Part shown: positions 15,823 to 58,243 of the stretch, in pieces
Position numbering within the stretch: position 1 is the first letter of the stretch
How the letters are laid out: the number at the start of each line of letters is the position of its first letter
Virus record (IMG/VR): IMGVR_UViG_3300031857_023573
Coordinates: 161,080 to 225,079 of that record
DNA from: a virus
Taxonomy: Duplodnaviria > Caudoviricetes
DNA length: 64,000 bases
Reading direction: 5' to 3' (one strand)
The notes under the pieces: model-generated
Databases searched by the model: none
The model's input: the letters and a program-made list of their open reading frames with translations, nothing else
Told to the model about the DNA's origin: nothing
Made by a program: the position numbers and the translations under genes

Positions 15823-16428
15823 CTATTGAAAAAGTTTAGTCAAAGTTGGAGTCAAACTTCCTTGTTCAAAAATTTGACAAAGTTTTCTATACTCATCATC
15901 GGAAACTCTCACAAAGGTTCCTTCAAATCCACATCGTGTCACTGCTTCGCCGGATTTTTCATCGATCCAATCTTCTGTCCACAGAGATTTTACTGGTCTA
16001 AATTCAGTTTGTGAGTACAGAGTTTTTAAACAATCTATTAGAATTGGTAATTTTTCTTTTTTAAATAGATATTCTTCAAAGTGTATGAATAAGAATTCAT
16101 AACCGGATTCTTTACCAGATTCAATTAATTTTATTTTGCTTTCAGAGTCTAGATTAATTCTTATAAGTTTCGGACGTGTCGACAAGAAATCCGAACAATA
16201 CTCTAATCGATGGTTACTTGTTTCAGTATCTAAAATATTTATCAATTTGTTGGTAGCACTTGACCAGTGCGTATCTTTAAAATAAAGATATCCATAGTCA
16301 TAATCATCGATAAATGTGTCTACTTCATCAGTAAAATCATAAAAGTAACTTTTAATTTCCTCTAAGTCAGGAAATTTGTCACTAAAGTTTTCAGATTCAA
16401 AAAGGTTAAATTTTTTTATAATCATCAC
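15823..16428 (-). CDS. hypothetical protein with capsid-targeting-like N-terminus
   Basis: MMIIKKFNLFES; DLEEIKSYFYDFTDE resembles a segment of the neighbour. Confidence 0.65.
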   Translation of the reverse strand: MMIIKKFNLFESENFSDKFPDLEEIKSYFYDFTDEVDTFIDDYDYGYLYFKDTHWSSATNKLINILDTETSNHRLEYCSDFLSTRPKLIRINLDSESKIKLIESGKESGYEFLFIHFEEYLFKKEKLPILIDCLKTLYSQTEFRPVKSLWTEDWIDEKSGEAVTRCGFEGTFVRVSDDEYRKLCQIFEQGSLTPTLTKLFQ

Positions 16429-17288
16429 ATTTTAAGTAAAATTTTTAAATCATAATCGTTAATATTTGGCAAATCTGCCTTCCATGGCCAAATTACGTCT
16501 TCATAGTCAAGTTCAGATAGAAGTGAAGGCATAACTTCTTCAAATCGAGTAGTTAATTCTTTTCCATCAATCTGATTATCATAATAAGCACTTATTCCGA
16601 TATAAATTCCTGGTCTATAAAGTTCAAGTGAATTTTCTAAGTTATATTTCTGTTTATCATCTAGAAATCTACTAAGAGCTGATTGTGAGATTTTATCAAT
16701 CTCTTCAATTTTAAATTTAATCTTAGATATATTTTTCATAGACCACTTTGGTGAAGTTACATATACTTCATCATATGTTGTTCTTGATAGAAAAGTTCCT
16801 GATCTGGCACCTGCACTTGGTCCTTGTGCAATAAAAAGAGTTGATGAGAGTAAGCCTACCAAAAAATGTGAAATTAAAGACAGTTTCTCTGAGTTATCAA
16901 TATTTTTACAGGTTATTAATCCGTTATATCTTCGTAATATATTCGACACATGAATGTCAACGTCAGCATATAGTGTACAAAGTGTCACAAATTTTGATTC
17001 CACAAATAGATATTCATCAAATATATCTAATAATTTATCCTTTATAAAATCTAAATCGACATTTCCTAAACTTTGAACCAATTTTGTAAAATGACTGTCT
17101 ATTTTACTCCACTCACCTTCTCCTAAAAAATGATTTACTTGGTTTTTTAGGTCTGACTCATTAATAGTCGAATTTAACATATATTTTTTGAGTGTATTAA
17201 ACCACTCATATATAGAACCAAACTCTGTATCAGTTCTATCTTGCCACATATCTGACTCTAAGAATGAATTATATTTTTTTATTTTCAT
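16425..17288 (-). CDS. hypothetical protein with capsid-targeting-like N-terminus
   Basis: MKIKKYNSFLES; DLDFIKDKLLDIFDE segment. Confidence 0.65.
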   Translation of the reverse strand: MKIKKYNSFLESDMWQDRTDTEFGSIYEWFNTLKKYMLNSTINESDLKNQVNHFLGEGEWSKIDSHFTKLVQSLGNVDLDFIKDKLLDIFDEYLFVESKFVTLCTLYADVDIHVSNILRRYNGLITCKNIDNSEKLSLISHFLVGLLSSTLFIAQGPSAGARSGTFLSRTTYDEVYVTSPKWSMKNISKIKFKIEEIDKISQSALSRFLDDKQKYNLENSLELYRPGIYIGISAYYDNQIDGKELTTRFEEVMPSLLSELDYEDVIWPWKADLPNINDYDLKILLKM

Positions 17289-17827
17289 ATTTCTATGGTT
17301 AGATCTGTATTGTTCGGTCTAGTATAAATAACTTTATTTACATTATTAAAATTATACTTATAATTTGGATCACAATATTTCTTTCCACATCCTGGTTTAG
17401 TATAAGCAAGTGTTATATGTGGATTATATTCTGGATACTTATCACTATTTGGAATACTAGACTTTAACTTATTATGTAAGTTAAGTAGATTATCATTTCG
17501 ATCAACATTGAATTTTACAACATCATATTTAGGATTTTCAAAAAGGTCTATACCGTTAATATTCACTTCTAACTTATCTTTTAGAACTTCTCTTAAAATC
17601 GATTCTACTTCACTAACATCAACGACACTTGTCACTGGGTAAAGTAGAGTCAAATGTGGGTGTTCTTGAATGCCATAGTTGTCACCTTCAGTTTCTTGAT
17701 ATAAATCATCTGGATTTATTTGTGATGTCAAGTCTTTCCAATTTTCGACTGGTACATGAACCATCACACATCCGTGATCATATCCTTGTGACTCTAGAAA
17801 TTTTTCATATTTTAATAAAAACTTCAT
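17285..17827 (-). CDS. 2H phosphoesterase (T4 gp57B/Acb1-like) with capsid-targeting-like N-terminus
   Basis: two HxT motifs (HPHLTLLY, YNPHITLAY); N-terminus MKFLLKYEKFLES. Confidence 0.8.
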   Translation of the reverse strand: MKFLLKYEKFLESQGYDHGCVMVHVPVENWKDLTSQINPDDLYQETEGDNYGIQEHPHLTLLYPVTSVVDVSEVESILREVLKDKLEVNINGIDLFENPKYDVVKFNVDRNDNLLNLHNKLKSSIPNSDKYPEYNPHITLAYTKPGCGKKYCDPNYKYNFNNVNKVIYTRPNNTDLTIEI

Positions 17828-17828
17828 A

Positions 17829-18341
17829 CTATTTTAATTTAGTTTTGAAAGGACTCTTCAGGTGTTTAAGATTCCATCCAGGAATAAAATCTTTATTCTT
17901 TTTTTCAAAATCTTCATAAGATTCAATTCCACTATCTACACAGTTTCTCTCGTATCCTAAGTTTGCTCCTTTTAATTTTGGAACACGGTCATCAATAGTA
18001 GTTGATTTTGTTGCTTTTCTTATTTTTTCTAACTGCTTTACAGTTGATTCTCTCGGAAGTGCGCCTTCATTTTCTGACATAACAACTTCAATTGTACCAT
18101 CTTCTTTAAATTTAGCGAAGTGAAATCTATCAACTATTGGTAATACTTTACCGACTAATTCTGATTCAATACTTTCTGGGCCAAAAGATTTAATAAATTT
18201 TCTACCGTTATCGTCTATAACGAAGTCAAAATCTTGACCTGGATTTTTTTCAATAAGTGCTTTTATTCTGCTTTTTATTGATATAAACTCGTCAACTTTA
18301 GCTCCTTTGTAAGCTTTAAGTCTTGCTCTGATAATTTTCAT
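17829..18341 (-). CDS. hypothetical protein
   Basis: 170-aa ORF; AATATATA 25 nt upstream. Confidence 0.6.
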   Translation of the reverse strand: MKIIRARLKAYKGAKVDEFISIKSRIKALIEKNPGQDFDFVIDDNGRKFIKSFGPESIESELVGKVLPIVDRFHFAKFKEDGTIEVVMSENEGALPRESTVKQLEKIRKATKSTTIDDRVPKLKGANLGYERNCVDSGIESYEDFEKKNKDFIPGWNLKHLKSPFKTKLK

Positions 18342-18437
18342 TTTAAAAATATAATTTTAATTAGTTTATATATTAAATGGTCTCTTCAAACTTTCTCACA
18401 TCTTAAACTATAAAATAGGTCTAAATATTTTATCAAA

Positions 18438-56636: not shown

Positions 56637-56638
56637 TT

Positions 56639-56650
56639 TAATATATATTA
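56639..56650. promoter_or_regulatory. palindromic TAATATATATTA between divergent genes (candidate bidirectional phage promoter)
   Basis: perfect 12-bp palindrome containing AATATATA on both strands. Confidence 0.5.
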
Positions 56651-56669
56651 AAACTAGTTTATTTTAAAA

Positions 56670-57440
56670 ATGAGATACTTGAAGAGATTCGATGAAGAGT
56701 TAAATTTATCTACCTATAGATCAGCAGAGAGAAAATTAAAGCAACTCATGAAAGATAAACCACAACTTGCAAAAGCTGTTGGTGCTGAAGAAAGAGCTAA
56801 AAACCTTGCTGATTGGAGTAAAAATATCGAATCAAGAGATATACTAAATAGATGGAAAAAGAATGTAGAAGAGTATCAAAAGTTTGGTGAGTTTAATTTT
56901 GAACTTTCAAGACCAGGTTCTCCTTCTATCAAACCAAAAGTTTACAGTTTTTATCTACATCTAGAGTGTGAGTATGAATCTATGATTGATTTCTGGGAAG
57001 AAGAAGAAGATAATAATAGAAATATTTGTTTCAGTTTTTTTACTGGATTAATTCCAAAAAACTTAGAAGATATTGAAGAAATTAAACAATTATATACAAA
57101 TGATTTTTTTAATGGATTCTTTTTTGGTAATTGGATTAATATTAATTATAAAGTCGTAAATAGTGAGTTGACTTTTATAGGAATTAATGTCAGAGATTAC
57201 GAGGTACCCGTACAAGTTGCAGATAGAAGAACTGCAAATTCTCTTAAAAGGCTTTTAGTGAATTGTTTTGACTCTAAATTTGACTATCCAAGTGGATATA
57301 GAGATATCACTAATATATATGATAAAATTGAACACTCTGTGATTCAGGCTCTTGATATGTCAATAAACTATGGAATAGACATGGATAGAATAAGAGAGGA
57401 TATACAGAAACTACCTGTTATAAATTTTTATAAACAATGA
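56670..57440 (+). CDS. hypothetical protein with capsid-targeting-like N-terminus, paralog of 57437
   Basis: MRYLKRFDEELNLSTY; ADRRTANSL. Confidence 0.65.
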   Translation: MRYLKRFDEELNLSTYRSAERKLKQLMKDKPQLAKAVGAEERAKNLADWSKNIESRDILNRWKKNVEEYQKFGEFNFELSRPGSPSIKPKVYSFYLHLECEYESMIDFWEEEEDNNRNICFSFFTGLIPKNLEDIEEIKQLYTNDFFNGFFFGNWININYKVVNSELTFIGINVRDYEVPVQVADRRTANSLKRLLVNCFDSKFDYPSGYRDITNIYDKIEHSVIQALDMSINYGIDMDRIREDIQKLPVINFYKQ

Positions 57441-58243
57441 AACATCTAAAGAAATTTGAAGAGTTAAATATCACAACTTATATAAAAGCTGGTGATGCTC
57501 TTAAAAAACATGGTCATCTTAAAAGAGGTCAAAAGATGATTGACTGGGCCAAACGAGGTGAGTTAGATAAAACACCAGATTTAAATCTTTGGATTAAGTG
57601 GATGAATAGTTATACTTCAACAAAAACCAAAGAAAAAGTAACAAAAGGCATAATTAGTGATGTTCCAATTAAGGCTAAAGTTAGTATGATCCACGTAAAT
57701 ATCGATAACTTAGGTGATGATTTTGAATATCATAAGACAGAGAATAGTTATCCAATATTTTTGACTATTAGTTTCTCTATAGGAGAGTCTGAGTTAGAAA
57801 AAATTAAACCAGAATATCTAGAATATTTTAAGGAAGAAGCTCATGACCACACTGGAATTGGTGGATATAAAATATTTCCAATGGAACTGACTTCTGGTTT
57901 TTCATTAAATGAATCTGGAAACATCGATAAAGTTTTTCAAGTTGGATTTTTCACTTATAATGAAATGGGCACTATGTTTAGCGACAGAAAGTCTGCAAAC
58001 AACTTTAGAACTATATTAAGGTCAGTTCTATCAAATCAAATAAAGGTTTATACTGGATATAAAGATGAAGATACCGGTGACTATATGACTAATTCAGAGG
58101 CACTTTTTGATAGATTAGAAAAAAAAATACCTACTCTTGAAATATCAGATATAGAACAGGTAATTGACGGGTTAAAAAATGTAAATATCAATGTACTCTA
58201 TAACGACGATATAAAAGAGGCAGAGATGAAGATTCAACAGTAG
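57437..58243 (+). CDS. hypothetical protein with capsid-targeting-like N-terminus, paralog of 56670
   Basis: MKHLKKFEELNITTY; SDRKSANNF. Confidence 0.65.
   Translation: MKHLKKFEELNITTYIKAGDALKKHGHLKRGQKMIDWAKRGELDKTPDLNLWIKWMNSYTSTKTKEKVTKGIISDVPIKAKVSMIHVNIDNLGDDFEYHKTENSYPIFLTISFSIGESELEKIKPEYLEYFKEEAHDHTGIGGYKIFPMELTSGFSLNESGNIDKVFQVGFFTYNEMGTMFSDRKSANNFRTILRSVLSNQIKVYTGYKDEDTGDYMTNSEALFDRLEKKIPTLEISDIEQVIDGLKNVNINVLYNDDIKEAEMKIQQ

Follow-up and report, generated by a model that had tools for sequence, protein, structure and literature searches.

Ten genes with a common leader

In the window, by which we mean the whole 64,000-nucleotide stretch analyzed here (positions 161,080 to 225,079 of the IMG/VR virus record IMGVR_UViG_3300031857_023573), ten genes between positions 15823 and 58243 encode proteins that begin with a short leader of recurrent pattern. 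Judged by their sequences, the ten leaders can be read as one motif of 9–12 residues, M-x(1-4)-[KR]-x(0-1)-[FY]-x-x-[FL]-x(0-2)-E. An earlier note on this DNA, written by a model without database searches, had listed the ten N-termini and likened them to the capsid-targeting sequence (CTS) of bacteriophage T4. All ten were found where the note had placed them, two starts being most likely a few nucleotides away (16425 for 16428 and 27440 for 27434). The genes are numbered below as carriers 1–10 in their order along the window, and an open reading frame (ORF) with the leader is called tagged.

The window's phage is a huge T4-superfamily phage of the "Mahaphage" type and its host belongs to the Bacteroidetes. 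It was placed in the T4 superfamily because the window contains a T4 gp13-like neck (head-tail adaptor) gene (20506..21285, minus strand; PF26809 on the identical public protein; phrog_211, 1e-12), whose product is 79% identical to its orthologue in the huge phage LR756502. This 642-kb genome, the closest complete relative, was fetched whole and served as the reference relative (959 ORFs); the conserved proteins of the two phages are 70–79% identical and syntenic. Identical copies of window proteins were found on public contigs of up to 0.2–1 Mb, a 36-nt sequence searched for exactly had no match among viral contigs, and a window protein of 878 amino acids (aa) matches only the uncultured huge phages LR756502, LR745206, LR756504, LR756501/3 and LR756500. 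The window has a G+C content of 30%, and Shine-Dalgarno sequences are absent.

Carriers 1–3 belong to one operon on the minus strand (18341 > 17827 > 17288 > 16425). Its last gene is carrier 1 (15823..16425; 200 aa), which has the leader MIIKKFNLFE followed by Ser and belongs to no known family, neither Pfam nor PHROG giving a match; its most likely start, the ATG at 16425, agrees with the JGI gene call of 200 aa. Carrier 2 (16425..17288; 287 aa) begins with MKIKKYNSFLE, also followed by Ser, and its LR756502 orthologue with MKIKTYSLFLES. Carrier 3 (17285..17827; 180 aa; leader MKFLLKYEKFLE, then Ser) contains a 2H phosphoesterase domain of the LigT/Acb1-like kind (PF13563, 4e-13; PF02834, 2e-7; PF23474, 4e-5, which is under the cut-off). 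In the family alignment the conserved domain begins at about residue 19, the leader and a short linker coming before it; the LR756502 orthologue is tagged and 2H phosphoesterase homologues retain a leader.

Carrier 4 (19987..20484, minus strand; 165 aa; leader MKHLYKFKKFNE, then Val) lies directly downstream of the gp13-like neck gene, with which it is predicted to be co-transcribed, and the syntenic gene of LR756502 begins with MKHLSPYKIFEA. Carrier 5 (27440..28675, plus strand; 411 aa) has the leader MYKFKEFLIE followed by Lys; the ATG at 27440 was chosen on the basis of public gene calls and of 116 homologues, which down to 40% identity keep the pattern [YF]-x-[DE]-[FY]-[IL]-x-E at residues 4–10. 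Carrier 6 (34640..35197, minus strand; 185 aa; leader MQVKKFSDFLNE, then Asn) has an LR756502 orthologue that begins with MKIRKFTEFINEE. For carrier 7 (38467..40017, plus strand; 516 aa; leader MFDIKYFKTFNE, then Ala), the only match was phrog_1462, a family of unknown function; the start at 38467 is correct, since the longer frame includes a promoter box (see below) and, with few exceptions, the homologues inspected have the tag as their N-terminus.

The remaining three genes are neighbors. Carrier 8 (56397..56636, minus strand; 79 aa) begins with the variant leader MKNLKSFEKF and its LR756502 orthologue with MKWIKLFEDF. Carrier 9 (56670..57440, plus strand; 256 aa; MRYLKRFDEE) and its paralogue, carrier 10 (57437..58243, plus strand; 268 aa; MKHLKKFEE), are members of a family with a longer conserved N-terminal module, about 39 residues of which are common to its members; one LR756502 member lies directly upstream of the portal gene. 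The match of carrier 10 to LR756502 is confined to its 39 N-terminal residues.

The consensus given in the earlier note, K-x-[FY]-x-x-F-x(1-2)-E, fits seven carriers, whereas the other three have an [LI]-K-x-F-[DE]-E flavor. That the carriers are otherwise unrelated was confirmed by all-against-all BLASTP except for carriers 9 and 10 (24% identity, E 1e-6); a weak match (E 1e-4) was also seen between carrier 6 and the untagged ORF 13337-13735. The expectation of several probable enzymes among them was weakly borne out. Only one, the 2H phosphoesterase, would qualify from its sequence as a clear enzyme, and the C-terminal half of carrier 5 is weakly GNAT-like (E about 3e-3; TM by target 0.35–0.40). 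The 516-aa carrier 7 has no recognizable fold, Foldseek against the PDB giving no match at E ≤0.001 and VIA-align none above Z 4 (PX-domain-like rows only). Most of the others are matchless, 6–8 of the ten carriers being without a Pfam or PHROG match.

AlphaFold models of carriers 5 and 7, built with 64–66 homologues, have confident bodies (pLDDT 87.8 and 88, respectively) that differ from each other. Residues 1–20 of carrier 5 form a detached helix at 55–62 and residues 1–11 of carrier 7 are unmodelled (<50); the two leaders score 35–62 and are detached from the body. In these models the leader is thus predicted to lie outside the folded protein.

Enrichment of the leader in the window

Matches were counted with the regular expression [KR]-x(0,1)-[FY]-x-x-F-x(0,2)-E in residues 2–14, which was composed after the data had been seen. 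It fits 7 of the 75 window ORFs. Shuffled N-termini gave 0.34 ± 0.57 matches (2000 shuffles, none with more than 3), and from internal 13-mers 0.11 would be expected, so that the motif is enriched over background N-termini, as the note's reading presupposed. Because the expression is post hoc, the window was also scored with a weight matrix that had been derived de novo from LR756502. Seven of the 75 ORFs scored above 6 bits, where 0.2–0.4 were expected; they include carriers 8 (12.9 bits), 9 (12.4 bits) and 10 (19.0 bits). A scan of all six frames, in which every ATG followed by at least 35 codons was considered, returned the ten carriers and only two antisense matches, which we regard as noise. 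Motifs derived de novo by expectation maximization (EM) for the cultured phages MA9V-2 and PTm1 and for the window alone were of low information and looked overfitted; the regular expression and cross-genome scoring were used instead.

The leaders, charged and amphipathic, have a Lys, Glu or Asn at every second or third residue. A hydrophobic stretch is absent, and the basic n-region and uncharged hydrophobic core (10–20 residues) of Sec, Tat or lipoprotein signals were not seen as such when the sequences were read directly (no predictor was run).

The leader in other huge phages

In LR756502 the regular expression matches 62 of the 959 ORFs (3.8 expected), and an EM motif found de novo, K-[HY]-[LI]-K-x-[YF]-x-x-F, has about 170 members vs about one false match from internal segments. 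Overall, about 100–170 of the LR756502 ORFs are tagged, and their products are for the most part unrelated. The first 400 kb of LR756501 contain 33 matches to the regular expression among 531 ORFs (2.2 expected), there in the flavor MIKK[FY]xxF[IV]NE[AGS]. A DNA pattern for MK[HY][LIFM]K was found 59 times in LR745206, 48 times in LR756504 and 24 times in LR756500, whereas the reversed control pattern gave 1, 4 and 1 matches, respectively. When metagenomes were scanned with the capsid protein of LR756502, 80 head-module loci were obtained, none of which could be assigned with certainty to the window's phage; 80 of the 818 ORFs in these loci are tagged according to the regular expression or the matrix. 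The set of about ten proteins described in the earlier note is dispersed, as claimed, but far larger than thought, extending through the genome and through the clade.

Several ORFs of the metagenomic head loci begin with M..K[YF]..FNESKK. In LR756502 a small protein with an NFACT-R RNA-binding domain is encoded after the capsid gene (229253-229942), and the LR745206 ORF at the equivalent position is tagged (MIKKYKLFKEG..).

Could the leader be a product of chance in a genome of 30% G+C? Lys, Phe, Tyr, Asn and Glu, the residues of which the leader is made, are indeed common in the genome of the window's phage. The motif is nevertheless at least 20-fold above shuffled N-termini and internal segments in the window, in LR756502 and in LR756501; the reversed DNA patterns gave 1–4 matches vs 24–59; and PTm1, a phage of the same G+C content and host phylum, has almost none. 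Chance is therefore largely excluded and its probability practically negligible.

Seven of the carriers have an LR756502 homologue at E ≤1e-4, and in 7/7 the best match is tagged at 29–58% identity. Among untagged orthologue pairs of window and LR756502 the tag was gained in none. BLAST clustering of the 173 tagged ORFs of LR756502 yields 142 clusters, of which 131 are singletons. About six of the 48 longest tagged LR756502 proteins have Pfam domains, and these are as different as a T4 Rnl1-type RNA ligase, a polyA/CCA polymerase head, a phage lysozyme, DHH, PQ-loop and DUF6576.

These numbers bear on the view that one family has expanded into all the carriers, which would be distant paralogues with the leader as their best-kept remnant. 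Such families exist: carriers 9 and 10 are paralogous, their family shares its ~39 N-terminal residues, and one family among the 173 tagged ORFs has 17 members. For the tagged set as a whole the singletons argue against this view, as does the finding that similarity ends right after the Glu. Tagged proteins contain domains as unlike as 2H phosphoesterase, RNA ligase, lysozyme, DHH and polyA polymerase head, and the two AlphaFold bodies are unlike as well. Remote paralogy is thus also largely excluded; we consider it very improbable.

A probable late promoter box in front of the carriers

All ten carriers lie downstream of a box, TAATATATA, either directly (starts at 27440, 38467, 56636, 56670 and 57437) or within an operon. 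The window contains 11 exact copies of the box (at 13323, 18375, 21312, 27410, 33859, 35578, 38454, 56639, 56650, 57311 and 58261), all of which are oriented towards gene starts. On the minus strand, 18367..18375 stands before the operon of carriers 1–3, 21304..21312 before the gp13-like neck gene and carrier 4 (21285 > 20484), and 35570..35578 upstream of the 35457 ORF and carrier 6 (35457 > 35197). On the plus strand, 27410..27418 ends 21 nt upstream of the start of carrier 5, 38454..38462 ends 4 nt upstream of the ATG of carrier 7, and the box at 57311..57319 is internal to gene 56670, 117 nt before carrier 10. Between carriers 8 and 9, which are divergent, a spacer of 33 nt holds two overlapping boxes, one on each strand (56639..56650).

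The association is not peculiar to the window. In LR756502, AATATATA is present within 60 nt upstream of 85 of the 173 tagged vs 103 of the 740 untagged genes (Fisher p 1e-21), and the host-type Bacteroidetes box TAnnTTTG is depleted among the tagged genes. The full or core box (AATATATA/TATATATA) precedes the LR756502 genes for portal, protease, capsid protein, terminase, sheath, gp5-like and gp13-like proteins and is not found before those for gp32 or DnaK. Since the same box precedes head and tail genes in LR756502, TAATATATA is probably a late promoter. A T4 gp55-like late sigma factor (phrog_234, 1e-5; no Pfam match) is encoded nearby in LR756502. The carriers would accordingly be predicted to be made late, together with the head proteins.

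The distance from the late box to the ATG in LR756502 is bimodal, 4–8 nt in 71 of the 85 tagged genes and about 18–30 nt typically in structural genes. From a spacing of 4–8 nt it follows that the mRNAs are probably leaderless, and so, probably, is that of carrier 7. Host-type TAnnTTTG boxes stand before 52706, 59459 and 60485 of the window. The leader is missing from a second 2H phosphoesterase ("Swiss Army Knife" 2H-SAK, Pfam 4.6e-21), the gene of which (58281-59024) is preceded by a late box.

The coupling of box and leader could mean that the role of the leader is played at the level of the nucleic acid, its codons serving as a start enhancer for leaderless late mRNAs, or box and leader together forming a promoter-plus-leader cassette, a recombination handle by which genes would be swapped. 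The short box-to-ATG distance in those 71 of 85 LR756502 genes and the very A/T-rich first codons would be accounted for, and in T-even phages a conserved CTS region flanks the hypervariable internal-protein loci. Synonymous codon usage in the tags, however, equals that in gene bodies and the third positions of the matched DNA words vary freely, which argues for selection on the peptide; what is conserved are classes of residues (aromatic, aromatic, Glu), at a variable spacing from the Met. The same distance of 4–8 nt is shared by ~38 untagged genes, the box occurs without tag at the capsid, portal and protease genes, and a similar peptide is encoded by different DNA in T4 and in the cultured phages PAU and MA9V-2 (see below). 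A function at the nucleic-acid level is in our opinion improbable.

Head genes, cleavage-type sites and likeness to T4

In T4 internal proteins enter the core of the prohead by means of a leader of about 10 residues, which can bring in even GFP and is then removed by the gp21 protease; this protease also takes 65 residues off the capsid protein gp23 (PMC3012670, PMC5694885, PMC9958956). In the T4 record we read MKTYQEFIAE, the peptide quoted in the earlier note, at the start of IPII and IPIII and MKTFKEF at that of IPI; MKTYQEFIAE fits the same regular expression as the carriers. Residue 65 of gp23 in this record is the Glu of FLTE. Mullaney and Black in 1996 reportedly dealt with the T4 CTS of the internal proteins IPI, IPII, IPIII and Alt.

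LR756502 has its head genes in a T4-like order: gp4, two tagged ORFs, the gp20 portal gene (Portal_T4, 1e-57), the gene for a 699-aa protease (head protease phrog_207, 6e-28) and that for the capsid protein (Gp23, 4e-28). Carriers 9 and 10 have a family member in one of these two tagged ORFs. ORFs for a portal, a protease-like protein and a capsid protein can also be recognized in LR745206, LR756501 and LR756500. A T4-type portal, a gp21-family protease and a gp23 capsid protein are encoded in each of the six relatives in which they were sought. The nearest cultured relatives of the LR756502 capsid protein, a member of the Gp23 family, are found in the jumbo phages PAU, MA9V-1/2, MaF61, PTm1/5 and pT24 of Bacteroidetes hosts, that of PAU being the nearest by tblastn (26% identity, E 1e-39). 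In PTm1, PAU and MA9V-2 the Peptidase_S77 domain is above the Pfam cut-off.

A hydrophobic residue-x-Glu site within residues 5–20 is present in 81% of the tagged and 26% of the untagged ORFs of LR756502. In the tagged ORFs the position of the Glu has sharp maxima at residues 9 and 11, with Asn or Phe in P2 and mostly Ser in P1'. Nine of the ten window leaders have a site of this type. The capsid proteins of the clade contain the sequence ..EYAE[FY]H[SQ]INENA.., invariant in 76 sequences, in which H-S/Q-I-N-E-N-A occupies residues 39–45. The capsid protein thus has a similar hydrophobic-x-Glu motif near its N-terminus, and the tags end in the kind of site that is found there.

Carrier 5 has a second, nearly invariant motif, L-[IL]-L-E-S, at residues 16–20 (LILE then Ser, 9 residues past the Glu of the leader) in its 116 homologues, which from its sequence could be a second cleavage site. 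Leaders doubled in the same manner (LYE.. then ..LNE) are seen in PAU.

The leaders share with the T4 CTS that they are short (10–20 residues), N-terminal and common to otherwise unrelated proteins, that their key residues are aromatic, x, x, Phe, Ile/Leu, x, Glu, that their end is a hydrophobic-x-Glu site such as gp21 would cut, and that the lineage has head genes of the gp20, gp21 and gp23 types along with T4-type transcription of late genes. The leader of carrier 5, MYKFKEFLIE, matches MKTYQEFIAE in length and key residues; carriers 5 and 6 keep [YF]-x-[DE]-[FY]-[IL]-x-E, and the MKHLK flavor is more distant from T4. The differences are in number, a handful of T4 carriers vs ten in 64 kb here and 60–170 per relative genome; in the commonest flavor, MK[HY][LI]KxY/FxxFE, in which the aromatic pair is three residues further from the Met; and in the residue after the Glu, usually Ser or Asn rather than Ala.

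Two cultured phages stand between T4 and the huge phages. In the Chryseobacterium phage MA9V-2 five genes, two of which flank the portal gene, start with MKTFTYFINEA, MKNFFSFINEA or similar, and the capsid protein has near its N-terminus SEFINEA, which shares FINEA with the tags. The Sphingomonas (Sphingobacterium) phage PAU (JQ362498), likewise a T4-superfamily jumbo phage of a Bacteroidetes host, has about 20 genes that start with MKT[LI]xxL[YF]E[AS], most of them at 100–121 kb amid the portal, protease, scaffold and capsid genes. Among the tagged genes the depositors labelled gp142 and gp154 "internal capsid protein" and gp152 "scaffolding". Several PAU tags continue with ..KLNE[AS], and KLNES is found in the PAU capsid protein. 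PAU differs from the window in having Leu in place of the first aromatic residue and in the concentration of its tagged genes in the head module rather than their dispersal. As the position and residue logic are constant and the copy number rises, the leaders form a series from T4 via MA9V-2 and PAU to the huge phages.

Many head-internal proteins are also cut after Glu, by a gp21-related protease, in phiKZ and SPN3US, whose large cargo of about 50 head proteins enters the host; their propeptides are mostly longer than 100 residues and, unlike the leaders described here, have no single short leader in common (PMC5694885, PMC10052503). Long protein-specific propeptides of the phiKZ type were not found among the carriers, the leaders of which have 9–12 residues and are shared, and conserved domains begin by about residue 20. 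The cleavage motif of phiKZ-like phages is small residue-x-Glu and differs from the hydrophobic-x-Glu seen here.

In the literature we came across no account of a leader common to proteins of PAU-like, Lak or Mahaphage-type phages; the papers listed as containing "capsid targeting sequence" concern T4, P1, P22 or SPN3US. The PAU capsid paper contains neither cleavage nor mass-spectrometry data.

A capsid-targeting interpretation

The leader is enriched, is carried by unrelated proteins, is kept by orthologues, lies outside the fold, is linked to the late box and resembles that of T4. Because it explains all the observations gathered, we favor capsid targeting and think it probable, with some reserve, that the ten proteins carry a local version of the T4 CTS. 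The carrier genes would be transcribed late from a TAATATATA-type promoter as used for head genes. Through its leader the newly made protein would dock onto the scaffolding core of the assembling prohead, and the gp23-type shell would enclose it. A prohead protease of the gp21 family (Peptidase S77) would then cut behind the Glu of a hydrophobic-x-Glu site whose next residue is Ser, Ala or Asn; the short peptide would leave, and the mature protein would be kept in the head and enter the next host cell with the DNA. The capsid-targeting reading of the earlier note is partly supported, at the level of sequence, by the likeness to T4, the head genes of the relatives, the cleavage-type site, the context in PAU and the late box, from which we infer docking and packaging, cleavage, retention in the head and ejection.

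The main rival, in our judgement an unlikely one, is another role at the protein level, in which the leader would be an address or handle for late proteins that leads elsewhere than to the capsid interior. It could be a docking peptide for another assembly site or compartment, an element recognized by the DnaK/DnaJ/GrpE chaperones of the phage itself, or a pro-peptide that silences an enzyme until a protease cuts it. This would explain the large number and variety of the tagged proteins and fits both the link to the late promoter and the position of the leader outside the fold; the window encodes a full DnaK/DnaJ/GrpE set and a DUF2201 metallopeptidase with a MoxR-like ATPase (see below). It leaves unexplained why the leader resembles the T4 CTS in length, position and key residues, why in PAU, MA9V-2 and LR756502 the tagged genes cluster near those for portal, protease and capsid, and why the hydrophobic-x-Glu is shared with the N-terminus of the capsid protein.

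Several findings weigh against capsid targeting. The tagged set comprises up to about 18% of the LR756502 ORFs, far beyond any known capsid cargo, and includes unlikely cargo such as the PQ-loop membrane protein, the RNA ligase and the CCA/polyA polymerase. PTm1, which has the same head machinery and base composition, is without clear enrichment (2 of 297 ORFs vs 0.3 expected). The dominant flavor of the huge phages, MKHLKxYxxFE, differs from that of T4 in having its aromatic residues three positions further in. The Peptidase_S77 scores of the LR756502 protease (22.7 and 20.2 bits) are under the Pfam cut-off of 27, its PHROG support being strong, and the protease and capsid genes of the window's phage are presumed from the conserved genes of LR756502, which are 70–79% identical. 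The labels "internal capsid protein" in PAU are depositor annotations of unknown basis, and a virion proteome could be found for none of the tagged phages, the paper on MA9V-1 containing only sodium dodecyl sulfate-polyacrylamide gel electrophoresis (SDS-PAGE).

Implications

The CTS of T4 is textbook knowledge, and the annotation of PAU hints that its depositors saw internal proteins. We read the leader system of the huge phages as a greatly expanded variant of this known mechanism: what is new is the scale, the consensus flavors and the coupling to a leaderless late-promoter cassette, whereas the mechanism would be the known one. We tentatively propose that the largest known phages use a T4-like leader to direct the products of at least a tenth of their genes (60–170 per genome) into the capsid interior, so that a pre-made "starter proteome" of more than 100 proteins would be delivered. 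If this is true, 2H and DHH phosphoesterases, an RNA ligase, a CCA-adding-type enzyme and a lysozyme would be examples of such proteins, and late box plus leader would constitute a portable cassette that turns any gene into cargo. A large share of the coding capacity would then be devoted to proteins acting before phage gene expression, e.g., against host defence signalling or tRNA cleavage, and this early-acting cargo would help to account for the very large capsids. The capsid-targeting signal of T4 would be ancient and common to the T4 superfamily. A simple sequence rule would predict the virion cargo of uncultured huge phages, a class of proteins that otherwise comes to light only when cultured phages are subjected to proteomics. 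PAU and MA9V-2, being relatives in culture, permit a direct test, and the leader is a possible tool for loading foreign proteins into capsids of Bacteroidetes phages.

Further features of the window

The window also encodes a T4 gp32-like single-strand binding protein (14795-15760), which together with the gp13-like neck protein is in the range of 74–79% identity to LR756502. Further content includes a complete Hsp70 system, a split topoisomerase II and a glycosylation island. The Hsp70 system consists of DnaK (29055-30935; 78% to LR756502), DnaJ (24334-25386) and GrpE (25985-26488; Pfam 1.7e-17). The DUF2201 metallopeptidase/VWA protein and the MoxR-like AAA ATPase are encoded at 54391-55857 and 60485-61594 and are 72–77% identical to their LR756502 orthologues.

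The cleavage subunit of topoisomerase II is split into 43066-43596 (residues 4–77) and 44549-45781 (residues 40–410). Both pieces align to a single LR756502 ORF of 447 aa, their ends look intein-like, and between them lies a separate ORF of 307 aa (43645-44568).

A NusG-like transcription factor is encoded by the phage at 36471-37013 (NusG, 1.9e-16, plus KOW). Two adjacent paralogues of 691 and 878 aa at 8549-13290 are 39% identical and have a single counterpart gene of 625 aa in LR756502; the 878-aa gene has a late box in front and is without known family. At 47220-52612 two large paralogous genes have 44% G+C within the genome of 30% G+C; they show mutual repeat similarity and a weak similarity to tail-fibre genes.

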